Of a stretch of DNA of 64,000 nt, positions 26,282 to 32,308 are shown in pieces. The stretch comes from a virus. Its lineage: Duplodnaviria; Caudoviricetes. Under the pieces are notes generated by a model. It did no database searches. It was not told where the DNA came from and was given only the letters and a program-made list of their open reading frames with translations. Where the stretch lies: positions 168,945-232,944 of the IMG/VR virus record IMGVR_UViG_3300025121_000014; one strand, given 5' to 3'. How positions within the stretch are numbered: position 1 is the stretch's first letter; every line of letters starts with the position of its first letter. Position numbers and translations under genes: made by a program.

Positions 26282-26309
26282 AAAAAAAAGGGATATTTAA
26301 TCTCCCTTT
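26282..26309 (-). terminator. Intrinsic terminator after the topoisomerase C-terminal half
   Basis: Minus strand GGGAGAT-TAA-ATATCCC stem (one mismatch) followed by 8 T. Confidence 0.65.
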
Positions 26310-28444
26310 CTAAACTTTCGAACTTCTTTTTTCAGTTCTAATAAATCTTTATGCCACATTTGTTCAATAGATATATCAGTAATTATTTTAATTTCTTTTT
26401 TTAATTCATCAAATTCCTCTTTTAATTTTACTAATTCTTCTTTTGATAATTTATATAAAGGAATTGATAATAAATAATTATATGAATCTTCTATTTTATC
26501 TAATTTATTTGTATCTAAAGATAATAAAATTTTATCCATAGGAATGTTATTTATTAAAATTGTACCATTCAATACTAACTTAATAAATTTCATTATATTA
26601 GATAAACGTTTATATTTTAAATCCAATTTATTAAGAATATATTCTTTTCTATCAGTATAATATACTATTCTATTATTATAAAAATCATCTATTATTTCAT
26701 ATTGATTTTCATATTTTTTAATTTTCCCTACAATATCAAATAAATGCATATTTGACATATTTAATTTAGAAGTTAATTCAAAAATATTATATAAATCTTC
26801 ATCCGTATATGATTGTAAAATTTCTCTTGATATTCTAATTTTAATATTAACTTTTGTATCAGTACAATATTTAATATACGATTTAATTATCTTATCATCA
26901 ATTAATTTATCTAATGTTAAATAATATTTATCATTCCAGACACCAATAGGTAATTCTGTTATATTTAAAGTCGTGGTATTAATTCTATTTATAATACCTT
27001 TAGTTATATAAACCTTATTATCTTTATCATAAATAATATCTCCTTTAAAACCTTCATAAAATGGATTTAAATCAATGTTCTTTTTTTTATTATTTAATTT
27101 ATTAATAATGTAATCAGTTAAATCTTCAATTTTAAAAGATGGTATAAAGGATGACCAACCAGTACCTACACCATAGCTACCATTTAATAATATATTTGGA
27201 ATAATTGGAATATAAAAAACTGGTTCTACTATTTTTCCATCATTTTCAGAATATTTTATAATATTATTATCAACTTGCATAAAAATTAGTTTGGTTATAT
27301 CTCTTAATTTAGTATGAATATAACGAGGTGCTGAACTATCTTTACCACCAGATAATCTTGTACCAAATCCACCAATAGGTTCAATTAAACTTATATTGTT
27401 AGAACCAACATAATCTTGAGCCATATTTATAATACCTTGATCTAATGAAGCAGATCCATGATGGTATTCCGCATTAGCTTTAACATGACCAAATAATTCA
27501 CCGACATTTAATTCACCTCTATTTCCTAATTTAAATAAAGTGAATAATATTTTTCTCTGTGAAGGTTTTAATCCATCCATAACTGAAGATATATTACGAA
27601 TATTATCTGCCATACTATATTCTATAAATTCATCATTCATAAAAGAATCATATGTAGTTTTACCAACAAATTTATCTACAATATTATTAGGATTATAATT
27701 TAATAACCATTCTTTTCTATCATCGGCTCTTTTATTTCTAAAAGCCAAATCAATTAAATCTTCTGTTTTTTCAGGATTTTCATAATTAAATTTAATAAGA
27801 TGTTTAGATATATTTTTAAAAAATACTTTACCAACTCCTCTTTCAATTGTACCAAGACCTTTATAATATTTTATATAATAACCTTTACCATTATCTGTAG
27901 TTTTTAACCAATGATTAAATTCTGATACTCTATAAAAGAATTTTTCAATTTTACCTTTTTTAGCTTTTGATATAGGTGTTACAAATTCATATAAAAAATC
28001 TATTTTTAATAATTCTGGCCAAAATGTATCAAATAAATTAATTAATAATCCTTTTATATGATAACCATCTAGATCTGCGTCACTCATTATGACAACTTTA
28101 CCATATCTTAAAGTTTTTATATTTTTATATTTTTTACCAAATTCTAAACCAAGAATTTGCATTAAATTTTTTATTTCATCATTTTCTTTTATCTTTTTTA
28201 AAGTAGTGTCTCTTACATTTAATGGTTTTCCTTTTAATGGAAATGCACCATAATAATCTCTACCAGTTTCAGAAAATCCAGCAATTGCAAGAGATTTAGC
28301 GGAATTGTGAGAAATTATACCATTTGATAATGTAAAACTTTCATCATCTACCGATATATCAACCATATTTACATATTCATCGTTATATTCAATAGAATCT
28401 ATTTCTACTAATTCCAAAAAATTATTTTCTATCATTATTTTCAA
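26297..28444 (-). CDS. top2: Type IIA topoisomerase C-terminal half (TOPRIM remainder plus breakage-reunion domain), led by a split-intein C fragment
   Basis: After ...IISHN: SAKSLA, PLKGK, DADLDGYHIKGL, YYKGLGT, DGLKPSQRK, YHHG, SAPRYIHT (catalytic Tyr). Confidence 0.93.
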   Translation of the reverse strand: MKIMIENNFLELVEIDSIEYNDEYVNMVDISVDDESFTLSNGIISHNSAKSLAIAGFSETGRDYYGAFPLKGKPLNVRDTTLKKIKENDEIKNLMQILGLEFGKKYKNIKTLRYGKVVIMSDADLDGYHIKGLLINLFDTFWPELLKIDFLYEFVTPISKAKKGKIEKFFYRVSEFNHWLKTTDNGKGYYIKYYKGLGTIERGVGKVFFKNISKHLIKFNYENPEKTEDLIDLAFRNKRADDRKEWLLNYNPNNIVDKFVGKTTYDSFMNDEFIEYSMADNIRNISSVMDGLKPSQRKILFTLFKLGNRGELNVGELFGHVKANAEYHHGSASLDQGIINMAQDYVGSNNISLIEPIGGFGTRLSGGKDSSAPRYIHTKLRDITKLIFMQVDNNIIKYSENDGKIVEPVFYIPIIPNILLNGSYGVGTGWSSFIPSFKIEDLTDYIINKLNNKKKNIDLNPFYEGFKGDIIYDKDNKVYITKGIINRINTTTLNITELPIGVWNDKYYLTLDKLIDDKIIKSYIKYCTDTKVNIKIRISREILQSYTDEDLYNIFELTSKLNMSNMHLFDIVGKIKKYENQYEIIDDFYNNRIVYYTDRKEYILNKLDLKYKRLSNIMKFIKLVLNGTILINNIPMDKILLSLDTNKLDKIEDSYNYLLSIPLYKLSKEELVKLKEEFDELKKEIKIITDISIEQMWHKDLLELKKEVRKFRKGD
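28304..28444 (-). other. Split intein C fragment (IntC, 47 aa)
   Basis: MVDISVDDESFTLSNGIISHN followed by Ser(+1): intein blocks F and G. Confidence 0.9.
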
Positions 28445-29705
28445 TTTTATTTTGTATAAATTTTATTATTTTATCTTTTTTATCTTTTTCAAAATCCCAT
28501 ATAACTAATACATCAAAATTATTATTTTTACATAAATTTAATTTATCGATATCTTTATTATAAACATCTTCTGCATTTAATTCTTTATTAAACGGATGTT
28601 CCCAATTATCCCATTCGTCTTTAGTGTAAATTTCTTTATTAGGATGCCAAATTTTACCATTATATTCAATAATAATTTTATAATCTAATAAAGTATAATC
28701 ATAAAAATATATTAAATCTTTATCATTATTTTTTAAAAAATATTCGTTTTTACCATACAAACCATTGATGTTTAAATATTTATCAACATCTTTAAATATT
28801 TTTATTGATTCATTTGAATAAAAATTACTATTTCGTATTTTACTTAGCCAATTATTTCTTCTGATAATACCATCTATTTCTCCATATAATTTAGTGAAAT
28901 TATCTACTGATAAATAATAACTTTTTTGTGATATATAATCGTTATACTTTTTATTACCATCTATACCATATCTAAATATAAAACTATTCAATGTTTGTTT
29001 ACATTTATTTGTTTTTATTCTGAATTCAAATAATGCTAATTCCTCATTTCCTTTATTTTTTTTTATAAAATGTTGTAATGACGAACTATCTTTCTTACTG
29101 CATATTTCATTAAATATTTTTGTTCCTTTTATTTCTCCATACTTTTCAATATAATAACTAATAGTATGTGAATATTTTAATTTATTTTTAAAATTGTTAA
29201 ACTTAGTTTTATCTCCATTAAAAAAATTCATATCTCTTGTTTGATATTTTTTATATATTTTTATATCTTTATGGTTTTCTTTATAAAATGGAGATTTATT
29301 CCTTTTATGAATAAATTCTAAAGCATCATCTTTAGATAAATTTAATGATTTGGATACAAATTCAACTGAGTTTGGATTTAGTTTTTTCCCATAACAATTT
29401 TTATTTTTACCCCTACAATAAAATTTACTGTAAATAATTTTAACATCTTTTATTAAACACCCATTTTTATATTTTTCTAATTCGTATTCTAATTCATAAT
29501 CTGAATATGAATCACAAAAACCACATTTTTTTATTTCTTTATTTAAATAATTAATTAAATAAAAATCTAATGTAAAATTAAATTTTTTAATAAGTGATAA
29601 TTTTAATGATTGTATAATTCTTTTTTTATTATAATTATTAGAATCTATAAATGATTTTATAGACATTCTAACATATTTATCGTTCATTATGTAATATACA
29701 TTCAT
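28422..29705 (-). CDS. Free-standing homing endonuclease (Vsr/PD-(D/E)XK-like) between the split-intein halves
   Basis: C-terminal FYDY.LLDYKIIIEYNGKIWH..DK..LC....FDVLVIWD; YIEKYG-type repeats; position inside the fractured gene. Confidence 0.8.
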   Translation of the reverse strand: MNVYYIMNDKYVRMSIKSFIDSNNYNKKRIIQSLKLSLIKKFNFTLDFYLINYLNKEIKKCGFCDSYSDYELEYELEKYKNGCLIKDVKIIYSKFYCRGKNKNCYGKKLNPNSVEFVSKSLNLSKDDALEFIHKRNKSPFYKENHKDIKIYKKYQTRDMNFFNGDKTKFNNFKNKLKYSHTISYYIEKYGEIKGTKIFNEICSKKDSSSLQHFIKKNKGNEELALFEFRIKTNKCKQTLNSFIFRYGIDGNKKYNDYISQKSYYLSVDNFTKLYGEIDGIIRRNNWLSKIRNSNFYSNESIKIFKDVDKYLNINGLYGKNEYFLKNNDKDLIYFYDYTLLDYKIIIEYNGKIWHPNKEIYTKDEWDNWEHPFNKELNAEDVYNKDIDKLNLCKNNNFDVLVIWDFEKDKKDKIIKFIQNKIENNDRK

Positions 29706-29752: not shown

Positions 29753-31552
29753 TTATATTTTATCATAATCAACTAAAAAATGTATATTTTTATCAATTTT
29801 ATCACATTCTAACATAATTATAGAATTATCATTAATATTAAAAACTGAAAATTTATGATTATTTGTAGATAGTATTTCATCACCATCGATATAAATAATT
29901 TTATTAAATTTATCATCTTTAATATTTTTTATATCATTAATTTTTACTAATCCATTAAAATTAATATTTTTATTTATTATCATTTTATGTATTTTTATAT
30001 CTATATCTTTTGTTCTTACAAAAAGAAAATCATTTTTAATTTTATCATAAATAAACCATTTATGATTTTCTGAACATATTAATATTTCACCGTTTTTTAA
30101 ATTTATGGTAACACTTTTTTCTATTTTTTTTGTAATATTTGTGATTAATTTAAAATTTGATTTATGTGTAATTACAACATCATCTAATTTAACATCTTTT
30201 ATTTTAATTTTTAATTTTTCACTATCTCTTAATATTGTAATTAATGTTTCTTCATATAAACAATCACCTTCAGTTAAAAATAAATGACATTTTTCAGATT
30301 CAACTGTTCCTGCTTTATTTGCATCAACTAATTTATCTACTTTAACTTTTTTAAATACATCTTTATTTAATTCTTTTTGTAATTGAATTTGATCTTTCAT
30401 CATAGATAATTTAATTAAATCATCTAACATATCAGACTTAGATATTCTTTTAATTATAGCATCATTTAATTGAACATCTTTTAATTGTCCATTTAATTTT
30501 GATGTTAAATTTTCTTTTGTTTGATTATCAAATACTGGATTTACTATTTTTGAATTAATAAATATTAAAAATCTATTTTTAATATCATTAGGTCTTATAT
30601 TAATACCCTTATTAGTTTTAGTTAATAAGTCTTTTACTGCATTAACTACATTACTAGTTACAAAATTAACATGTGTTCCACCAAAAATTGTTGATATACC
30701 ATTTACCATACTAACATGTGTAAATAAGTCAGATGGTGATTTAGCAACACCAATTTCCCAAAAATCATTTATTTTTTCATAAAATATTTCACCATTAGGT
30801 TCAATAAATAATTTCATATAATCTCTAAATGATCTTACTGGAATCATTACACCATTTAAAAATACTTTAACGGTAGGATTATAAGCCGCTATATCAATGA
30901 CACGTTTTACTAATAATGATTTTGTTTGTTCATCGATAGTAATCATATCAAATTTTTCAAAATCTGGTTTATATGTTATTTTAGTAAAACTTTTTTTAGA
31001 TTTTCTTGTGACTGGTTTAGTCATGGATGACATATTTTTAGAAAATTTTTGACGATATACTTTTTTACCATCAGCAGTTTCTACTTCAAACATAGTTGAA
31101 TAAATATTAGTGAGTTTTGCACCATAACCGTTACGTCCACCTACAAACCGTTCTTCATCATCTGAATAATTTTCACCTGTAAGTAAATGACCAAAAACCA
31201 TTTCTGGAATGTAAATTTTTTCTTTACCGTGAATTTCAACTGGAATCCCAGGTCCATCATTTTCAACAGAAATAATTTCTTCATCTATATTAATTTTAAT
31301 ATAAGATACTTGACCTGTTCTTATAGCATGGTCAGATGCATTAGTAATAATTTCATCAAATATTTTAATAAAACCTGGATTATAAGTTACTGTCTTATAT
31401 TCCATTTTAACTTCTTTTATATTATCATAATCAGTAGCAACAAAAATATTTTTAGTATCCATTTGTATACTCCCTATATAAGTTTCTGATCGTTTTAAAA
31501 TATGCTCTTTATGAGTTAATTTCACGTATCTATCTTCAACTTTTTTTACCAT
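29753..31552 (-). CDS. top2: Type IIA topoisomerase N-terminal half (GHKL ATPase plus TOPRIM start), ending in a split-intein N fragment
   Basis: EHILKR..TYIGS, FDEIITNA.D, ENDGPGIP, GGRNGYGAKLTNIYS, QTKE.L, LFLTEGD followed by C-L. Confidence 0.93.
   Translation of the reverse strand: MVKKVEDRYVKLTHKEHILKRSETYIGSIQMDTKNIFVATDYDNIKEVKMEYKTVTYNPGFIKIFDEIITNASDHAIRTGQVSYIKINIDEEIISVENDGPGIPVEIHGKEKIYIPEMVFGHLLTGENYSDDEERFVGGRNGYGAKLTNIYSTMFEVETADGKKVYRQKFSKNMSSMTKPVTRKSKKSFTKITYKPDFEKFDMITIDEQTKSLLVKRVIDIAAYNPTVKVFLNGVMIPVRSFRDYMKLFIEPNGEIFYEKINDFWEIGVAKSPSDLFTHVSMVNGISTIFGGTHVNFVTSNVVNAVKDLLTKTNKGINIRPNDIKNRFLIFINSKIVNPVFDNQTKENLTSKLNGQLKDVQLNDAIIKRISKSDMLDDLIKLSMMKDQIQLQKELNKDVFKKVKVDKLVDANKAGTVESEKCHLFLTEGDCLYEETLITILRDSEKLKIKIKDVKLDDVVITHKSNFKLITNITKKIEKSVTINLKNGEILICSENHKWFIYDKIKNDFLFVRTKDIDIKIHKMIINKNINFNGLVKINDIKNIKDDKFNKIIYIDGDEILSTNNHKFSVFNINDNSIIMLECDKIDKNIHFLVDYDKI
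29756..30262 (-). other. Split intein N fragment (IntN, 169 aa) with a duplicated block B
   Basis: Begins CLYEET directly after EGD; contains CSENHKW and STNNHKF 69 residues apart. Confidence 0.88.
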
Positions 31553-32079: not shown

Positions 32080-32103
32080 ATTCCCTATTTTTAATAATTT
32101 ATA

Positions 32104-32132
32104 TTTTCCTAATTATAAATAAATTAGGAAAA
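32104..32132. other. Perfect 11-bp hairpin
   Basis: TTTTCCTAATT-ATAAATA-AATTAGGAAAA. Confidence 0.55.
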
Positions 32133-32172
32133 AGGAGCAAGATTATGATATATGTATTTTTATTTTTATTTT

Positions 32173-32219
<47 letters not shown>

Positions 32220-32308
32220 GATTTCAAAGTTTTTTTCAGACTTTATTTTAAATTTTAAATATATTATACTACTACACTAAAAAATAGGTATAAAATAAAA
32301 TATAATGT

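Follow-up and report, generated by a model that had tools for sequence, protein, structure and literature searches.

Protein engineering relies heavily on split inteins, whose N-terminal fragments (IntN) are notoriously aggregation-prone. The IntN of Ssp DnaE has a short unstructured extension past block N4, and some inteins carry extra domains at the site of endonuclease insertion, among them PI-SceI (a DNA-recognition region) and PI-PfuI (the Stirrup domain). Here we analyze a split intein encoded in a 64,000-nucleotide stretch (the window) of the IMG/VR virus record IMGVR_UViG_3300025121_000014, positions 168,945 to 232,944. The intein interrupts a type IIA topoisomerase gene, and its IntN contains a diverged tandem copy of its own block B segment.

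The split inteins of phage fractured genes were described by Dassa et al. in 2009, with N-inteins of 88 to 105 aa and eight hosts, topoisomerase not among them (PMC2677866). The pseudo-C2 symmetry of the HINT fold has been ascribed to an ancient subdomain duplication (PMC7664689). Insertions of the homing endonucleases MobA and MobE split T4-type Topo II and NrdA genes, the halves being joined noncovalently by tails of about 44 aa, and the same work mentions in passing one metagenomic Topo2L split by VSR plus Hint/HintC (10.1101/2022.08.31.505936). Our full-text literature searches found no description of a duplicated N-intein. The analysis reported here established the duplication, its age, and its conservation, along with a modeled autonomous fold for the duplicate and a modeled canonical core.

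Results

A split class 1 intein in a phage topoisomerase gene

The minus-strand open reading frame (ORF) from 31552 to 29753 encodes 599 aa, in which the topoisomerase sequence ends in FLTEGD and is followed by Cys1 and 168 further residues, making a 169-aa IntN, and then a stop codon. The minus-strand ORF from 28444 to 26297 encodes 715 aa, of which the first 47 form the C-terminal intein fragment (IntC) and the rest begins SAKSLA. Relatives that lack an intein (about 1080 to 1100 aa) have TEGDSAK unbroken across the insertion site. We therefore read the element as a naturally split class 1 intein that interrupts a phage type IIA topoisomerase in TOPRIM, at EGD|S; the predicted splicing product would be an enzyme of 430 plus 668 aa.

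The pair has an N-terminal nucleophile, a block B, blocks F and G with Ser at +1, a modeled Hint fold, and modeled binding between the fragments. Position 1 after TEGD is Cys here and in 80 of 85 distinct relatives (see below), the other five having Thr. Block B (S64xxH67) is also present, with Ser or Thr at 64 in 82 relatives and His67 in all 85, and in IntC (NMVDIS...NGIISHN|S) the residues D26, H43, N44, and the +1 residue S45 are invariant in 21 sequences. Pfam Intein_splicing matched the IntN core at profile positions 23 to 93, and the best PDB sequence match of IntN was gp41-1 (E 0.002).

The five relatives with Thr at position 1 (EGD|TI...) are P0096, P0099, P0106, P0107, and P0131; Thr is an unusual N-terminal nucleophile for inteins. 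Two further sites outside the standard intein blocks are nearly invariant: D28-x-V-I-T32-H33, in 84 of 85 (T32-H33 lies at window positions 30164-30169), and H92, in 78 of 85 (29987-29989), which is mirrored by H161 in the tail.

A tandem repeat in the N-intein

A first-pass annotation of the window had claimed that IntN residues 37 to 96 are echoed by residues 105 to 164, giving two block B histidines. We located the ORF and both codons directly (H67 at 30064 to 30062 and H136 at 29857 to 29855, minus strand), found both (S/T)xxH segments in place, and delimited the two units as residues 38 to 95 and 109 to 164, very nearly the limits that had been claimed. The IntN of 169 aa thus comprises a canonical N-intein of ~100 aa and a tail of ~69 aa, the tail being a diverged tandem copy of residues ~38 to 95, which hold blocks N2, B, and N4.

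Compared as single sequences, residues 1 to 100 and 101 to 169 gave a Smith-Waterman score of 56 against 35.8 ± 6.6 for shuffled controls, 21 of 2000 of which reached 56, so that this test by itself is marginal. Profiles built from an alignment of 43 IntN homologs (A1) told a different story. In hhalign the tail profile matched the core profile with Prob 95, E 3.7e-8, and a score of 43.8, aligning residues 123 to 161 with 53 to 92; under permissive settings the alignment lengthened to 101 to 169 versus 33 to 100. Scores for 150 column-shuffled tails were 11.4 ± 2.7 (maximum 22.7), and the reversed tail scored 15.1. When reciprocal hidden Markov models (HMMs) were run on the window, the tail HMM matched IntN residues 38 to 95 and the core HMM matched residues 109 to 164. 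Because the profile score lay above the shuffles and the HMMs matched each other's segments, we conclude that the repeat is real and not an effect of Lys/Ile/Asn-rich composition. The proposed duplication of the block B segment was therefore borne out, its significance over shuffled controls being clear for the profiles and only marginal for the single sequence.

The resulting architecture departs from that of canonical mini- or split inteins, which have one block B and an IntN of about 88 to 123 aa, and this IntN is longer than known phage N-inteins, as the annotation had supposed (169 versus 88 to 105 aa; PMC2677866). Nor does it hold a nested LAGLIDADG or HNH endonuclease: the 69 residues past block N4 match only Intein_splicing, weakly, and are followed by the stop codon.

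Predicted structure of the core and the tail

AlphaFold2 (AF2) modeled the whole IntN from alignment A1 with a mean predicted local distance difference test score (pLDDT) of 90.1 and a predicted template modeling score (pTM) of 0.71. The strand pattern of the model repeats, with strands at 50-54, 60-64, 68-73, 78-83, and 92-94 in the core and at 121-125, 128-132, 137-142, 147-152, and 161-166 in the tail. Modeled residues 1 to 101 superposed in VIA-align on the IntN of Npu DnaE (4qfq_A) with Z 10.8 and a root mean square deviation (rmsd) of 2.1 Å over 93 residues. Inteins and other Hint-fold proteins accounted for 48 chains with Z of at least 8, and the tail lay outside those alignments. When Foldseek forced the tail to align with the IntC portion of complete inteins, the rmsd was about 16 Å, which indicates that the modeled tail is not at the IntC position; at an E value of ≤0.001, Foldseek found no match in the PDB for either the whole IntN or the tail.

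Modeled alone from its own alignment (A2), the tail formed six strands with a pLDDT of 94.2. Its best solved match was a circularly permuted Npu intein (5ol6_A; Z 6.4, rmsd 2.3, 60 residues, 28% identity), and tail residues 1 to 70 mapped to residues ~30 to 100 of several IntN chains with Z values of 3.4 to 4.9; these Z values are too low to stand alone and agree with the sequence evidence. Pfam Intein_splicing gave weak matches in 24 of 43 tails, at profile positions ~42 to 89, and the ESM Atlas neighbors of the tail model were mostly phage Hint and intein clusters. In these models the tail is an autonomous, small, closed β domain of the Hint-half type, placed at the canonical point of splitting and endonuclease insertion, and not the unrelated fold that the first-pass annotation had allowed for. 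The tail and IntC profiles aligned with Prob 15 and a score of 19.6, within the shuffle range. Derivation of the first tail strand from IntC is only a lead, one with which a permuted IntC-IntN intein as the best structural match would fit.

Distribution, age, and conservation of the tail

A word-indexed search returned 45 homologs with 43 to 73% identity, all of about 600 aa and all covering 100% of IntN. HMMER with the tail profile against 1.84 billion representative proteins (E ≤ 0.001) gave 59 matches, 48 of them in two or three stretches. The full-length matches were N-terminal parts of topoisomerases, both single-chain and T4 gp39-type, ending EG(D/L/F/N)|C... and followed by a long IntN; the remainder were fragments of such genes or short stand-alone ORFs. 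Nine loci in IMG/VR all covered IntN residues 1 to 165 of 169. Both copies were present in all 85 distinct relatives, and every one is a split intein that interrupts the TOPRIM domain of a phage type IIA topoisomerase at EGD|S. The unusual architecture is thus a property of the family and not a local accident. Within the 85 tails, Ser or Thr at 133 was kept in 82, H136 in 84, and H161 in 65. Among longer proteins we found no contiguous (unsplit) intein with this IntN, which is weak evidence.

The tail HMM matched all 85 family cores, with a median of 17 bits, and gave only 6 to 8 bits with the inteins at the DAD site of related topoisomerase genes; the source of the duplicate was therefore the intein's own core. 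The DAD-site inteins are different inteins, lying at the TOPRIM DxD motif (...DAD|C) of related topoisomerase II genes (P0071 and P0077, split; P0076, contiguous), and their IntN has a normal length of ~93 aa and no duplicate. Copies 1 and 2 were 26.6% identical within a protein and 25.6% identical between proteins, while orthologs were 42% identical in copy 1 and 34% in copy 2. Since the copies are no more alike within than between proteins, these values indicate a single duplication before the family radiated, with no gene conversion since.

In the tail, the proportion of nonsynonymous differences (pN) was 0.18 to 0.31 and that of synonymous differences (pS) 0.55 to 0.80. The value of pN was well under pS in every pair compared, a constraint weaker than that on the core, and the frequency of the majority residue was 0.60 in the tail versus 0.72 in the core. 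This pattern is that of a sequence kept by purifying selection.

Which copy splices

In the modeled complex of IntN and IntC, the ipSAE interface score was 0.62 versus 0.16 for the best control. The mark for this score was reached by 58 of 80 solved complexes and by 2 of 110 mismatched pairs, our own alignments being used. The runs shared at least 87% of their contacts, with a partner pLDDT of at least 66. The model supports association of the two fragments, although a pass of this kind may reflect memory of, or likeness to, solved split inteins. All confident contacts of IntC lay within IntN residues 1 to 99, that is, on the side of copy 1, the tightest pairing residues 51 to 56 with IntC residues 11 to 17.

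Natural variants bear on the same question. A family member at locus L016 has an IntN of 97 aa that keeps C1, the TxxH motif, and H92 and lacks the tail, and its partner gene begins with an intact IntC. Two other proteins, P0101 (L016) and P0112 (L017), consist of an IntC-like segment fused directly to an IntN-like segment plus tail (IntC*-IntN*-tail). Both have lost C1, H67 (replaced by Ser or Thr), the Asp of block F, and the His of block G, and both retain H136 and H161; that H67 was lost together with the splicing residues and H136 was not favors copy 1 as the catalytic one. Four indirect lines, namely, the canonical superposition of residues 1 to 101, the modeled contacts in 1 to 99, the tail-less IntN of L016, and the dead P0101 and P0112, thus favor copy 1 as the catalytic copy.

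Variant loci and stand-alone relatives

At L016:2316-6136, three Hint-related genes stand in series: a Topo II N-part with the tail-less IntN of 97 aa, the 211-aa P0101, and IntC with the C-extein. An opposite-strand ORF lies between P0101 and the IntC gene, and a ClpX-like gene is nearby. The arrangement looks like a tandem duplication of the intein in which the middle copy has been kept intact but splicing-dead. At L017:61-1222, the very divergent dead protein P0112 is encoded directly before, and overlapping, an active-looking IntC-TOPRIM gene; the upstream gene lies beyond the end of the contig. We found no more dead permuted proteins of this kind in IMG/VR.

Two free-standing genes of 70 to 75 aa matched the tail profile (P0118 at L018:569-781 and P0146 at L014:108-335). 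They have an upstream stop codon or unrelated neighbors, and each stands directly upstream of a gene for a ClpP-like protease. They may encode autonomous half-Hint proteins.

Organization of the locus

The three genes of the locus lie in series on the minus strand, encoding N-extein-IntN, a protein of 427 aa, and IntC-C-extein (Table 1). IntC starts at a TTG codon, and the database proteins begin at an ATG three codons downstream. An HMM search of the window found no further Hint sequences besides IntN and IntC.

Table 1. Features of the split topoisomerase locus, in window coordinates
Feature	Position	Strand	Basis
N-extein, topoisomerase IIA ATPase/transducer part, 430 aa, ending ...FLTEGD	30263..31552	-	Pfam HATPase_c and DNA_gyraseB; ORF list
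IntN core, residues 1-100, predicted canonical N-intein with C1, S64xxH67 (block B), and H92	29963..30262	-	AF2 superposition, Pfam Intein_splicing, modeled IntC contacts
Repeat copy 1, IntN residues 38-95, confident core 53-92	29978..30151	-	hhalign, reciprocal HMMs
IntN tail, residues 101-169, predicted extra half-Hint β domain	29756..29962	-	AF2 of tail alone, PDB match, ESM Atlas, Pfam
Repeat copy 2, IntN residues 109-164, confident core 123-161, with S/T133xxH136 and H161	29771..29938	-	hhalign, HMMs, alignment
Putative homing endonuclease (type unconfirmed), a free-standing ORF of 427 aa located between the intein halves	28422..29705	-	Homologous ORFs at the same place
IntC, 47 aa from TTG start, ending ...NGIISHN	28304..28444	-	Pfam Intein_splicing profile positions 119-155
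C-extein, beginning SAKSLA, 668 aa, with Toprim, TOPRIM_C, and DNA_topoisoIV	26297..28303	-	Pfam

The intein halves are thus on adjacent genes with a free-standing ORF between them, and assignment of this ORF as an endonuclease is putative and unconfirmed. It matches phrog_22677, a family of unknown function, and had no Pfam or PDB sequence match; a profile search with four sequences gave no credible match either. L001, L005, L006, and L008 have homologous ORFs of 376 to 384 aa in the corresponding position, with which it has an E(Y/F)(D/N)GxxWH motif in common. The motif is reminiscent of Vsr/DUF559 enzymes, and the Vsr-like assignment is likewise not confirmed. An intervening ORF is present in L005, L006, L008, L010, and L012 and absent in L011, where there is no ORF of ≥90 aa between the intein halves (L011:4489-4805). 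At L003:7776-13776, a stretch of 6 kb held no C-half, and a GIY-YIG gene is encoded upstream. The arrangements at L011 and L003 indicate that the split and the tail persist without a neighboring endonuclease gene.

The 3' end of the 427-aa ORF overlaps the region of the IntC TTG start by 23 bases (28422-28444), and the middle ORF and IntC overlap likewise, by a few bases, in homologous loci. This overlap of the two genes suggests coupled expression.

The surroundings have 21% GC. An origin in a giant virus, which the single-chain Topo II and the low GC content had brought to mind, was dropped: the window encodes a baseplate wedge protein (phrog_219), and the sole match in a search of a phage collection was a 462-kb uncultured phage. 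The source is a tailed jumbo phage and not a giant virus. A database protein identical to the product of this gene is encoded on a 233-kb contig. A long homopolymer A/T run, read as poly-Lys or poly-Phe in mechanically called ORFs, occupies 32099-32280, between the topoisomerase and thymidylate kinase genes.

Discussion

Possible roles of the tail

The best explanation as a whole, to which we give a probability of roughly 0.55, is a canonical splicing core with a selected accessory half-Hint tail that lies outside the active site and is likely a cap. The second half of IntN (N2-B-N4, residues ~38 to 95) was duplicated in frame and in tandem, once, before the family radiated. Copy 1 (C1 and S64xxH67) and IntC (the block F Asp and SHN|S) would form the splicing-competent Hint fold, and the duplicate would fold alone as a half-Hint at the split or endonuclease point, outside the splicing active site. 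There it might serve as a folded C-terminal cap or holdase that shields the unpaired IntN precursor and maintains its solubility until the strongly acidic IntC binds the basic core. Work on "capture and collapse" in Npu DnaE is reported to have found part of IntN disordered until IntC binds. By analogy, the tail would sit at the end of the part of IntN that stays disordered before IntC binding in well-studied split inteins. A role as a stabilizing cap is weakly suggested. We also considered the tail as a second electrostatic capture site for IntC and disfavor this idea, because the family-average net charge of the tail is about −2, nearly neutral against +7 for the core and −10 for IntC.

Several points weigh against a selected cap outside the active site. 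Residues that the complex tool does not name are merely uncertain, so the missing contacts of the tail are weak evidence, and dS is near saturation, which leaves the dN/dS values rough and their direction clear. The tail (S/T)xxH is as nearly invariant as the catalytic block B, a degree of conservation greater than stability alone would seem to require of a cap. The tail also persists in splicing-dead proteins and in free-standing genes of 70 to 75 aa, hinting at a function of its own, and L016 suggests that it need not be joined to an active IntN.

These last observations make a serious rival of the idea that the tail is an independent functional module whose conserved (S/T)xxH...H surface binds a partner or ligand, beyond any stabilization of IntN. 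Such a module might, for instance, time or regulate the assembly of Topo II, bring in a factor from the phage or its host, or deal with the intein after excision. H136 and H161 outlasted the splicing residues in the dead proteins P0101 and P0112, and these proteins stand beside topoisomerase halves in two divergent loci; at L016, a protein bearing the tail is encoded apart from an active-looking IntN that lacks it; and both stand-alone genes lie next to ClpP-like protease genes. We nevertheless think it unlikely on balance. No partner, ligand, or interface was identified, a conserved His can be purely structural, the charge of the tail is unremarkable, and the two ClpP-linked genes are homologous loci that count as about one observation.

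A bolder and more doubtful version would make the half-Hint a free-living module with its own (S/T)xxH...H site that controls split-intein assembly in three forms: the IntN tail, the stand-alone proteins of about 70 aa, and the splicing-dead IntC*-IntN*-tail proteins, which might retain the topoisomerase halves or let them go. If true, protein trans-splicing would have its first natural system of regulators or chaperones acting in trans, and the half-Hint would be a living example of the autonomous subdomain proposed as the ancestor of the Hint fold.

We regard it as improbable that a duplication made during repair or endonuclease-gene invasion left the tail as a selectively neutral relic, retained only because its removal is hard. 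The tail is encoded by the last (3') part of the IntN gene and adjoins the inserted putative endonuclease gene, a place where illegitimate recombination is plausible, and its conservation falls short of that of the core (frequency of the majority residue, 0.60 versus 0.72). However, pN stayed well under pS in every pair, the tail has been retained down to about 25 to 30% identity across 85 sequences with near-invariant residues, and a stop codon would easily remove it, as in L016.

A similarly poor prospect, and if anything a poorer one, is that block B catalysis falls, always or as an alternative, to copy 2, with one copy looped out and the Hint fold shifted in register or domain-swapped. The first-pass annotation had offered such a redundant or domain-swapped catalytic module as one possibility; its two other proposals, a chaperone for fragment capture and a regulatory switch, may still hold. 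A tandem duplicate does topologically permit either register, and (S/T)xxH is retained in 82 to 84 of 85 tails, but the reading is disfavored by the high-confidence placement of residues 1 to 101 in the canonical IntN position (as in Npu DnaE), the confinement of modeled IntC contacts to residues 1 to 99, the natural 97-aa IntN that has no second copy, the loss in dead relatives of H67, along with C1 and the C-terminal His and Asn, and not of H136, and the closure of the tail on itself as a separate domain.

Chance self-similarity from Lys/Ile/Asn-rich composition and β-strand periodicity, for which the single-sequence score of merely ~3 standard deviations (SD) over shuffles could be cited, is in our judgment already refuted by a profile score ~12 SD over column shuffles, reciprocal HMM matches at the corresponding coordinates, and an identical consensus residue at 17 of 39 aligned columns.

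Comparison with known systems

The locus shares with the fractured genes of gp41-1, NrdJ-1, and IMPDH-1 (PMC2677866) a class 1 split intein broken between blocks N4 and F, with its halves on adjacent genes and a free-standing ORF between them, and with gp41-1 in particular the pairing of a basic N-intein with an acidic C-intein. It differs in its host, here a type IIA topoisomerase, in an IntN brought to 169 aa by the extra half-Hint, and in a middle ORF that is only a putative endonuclease. Phage type IIA topoisomerases, both fused and T4-type, would join the hosts of fractured genes, with TOPRIM EGD|S as the insertion site.

With Npu and Ssp DnaE the likeness is structural: residues 1 to 101 can be superposed on the Npu DnaE IntN, and the length of IntC and its blocks F and G are canonical here. 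The DnaE IntN ends past block N4, whereas here a conserved duplicate of 69 aa follows, folded in our models. A widely conserved IntN whose added domain is modeled as self-folding may point to a natural remedy for IntN aggregation or a natural point of control over trans-splicing. The system should hold moderate to good interest for those who study or engineer inteins. Inteins with LAGLIDADG or HNH domains have their extra domain at the same topological point, past block N4. The insert described here is instead a copy of part of the Hint fold, and our searches gave no endonuclease or DNA-binding match for it.

The MobA/MobE splits (10.1101/2022.08.31.505936) resemble this locus in that a mobile endonuclease gene splits a phage topoisomerase in TOPRIM and the upstream ORF carries a conserved C-terminal extension that is always retained. 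Here, unlike there, a true split intein is involved, and the extension is a Hint-derived domain that folds in models.

Finally, as in the pseudo-C2 symmetry of HINT (PMC7664689), the repeated unit has the size of a Hint subdomain, and the isolated tail resembles small β barrels of the kind postulated as the ancestral subdomain. The known symmetry is between the two subdomains, N and C, within a single fold and is undetectable by sequence; here a third unit, detectable by sequence, stands atop a complete two-subdomain fold. The origin of the Hint fold by subdomain duplication, hitherto resting on structural symmetry alone, becomes testable at the bench, because this Hint half can be recognized from its sequence, is modeled as folding by itself, and also occurs as a stand-alone gene.

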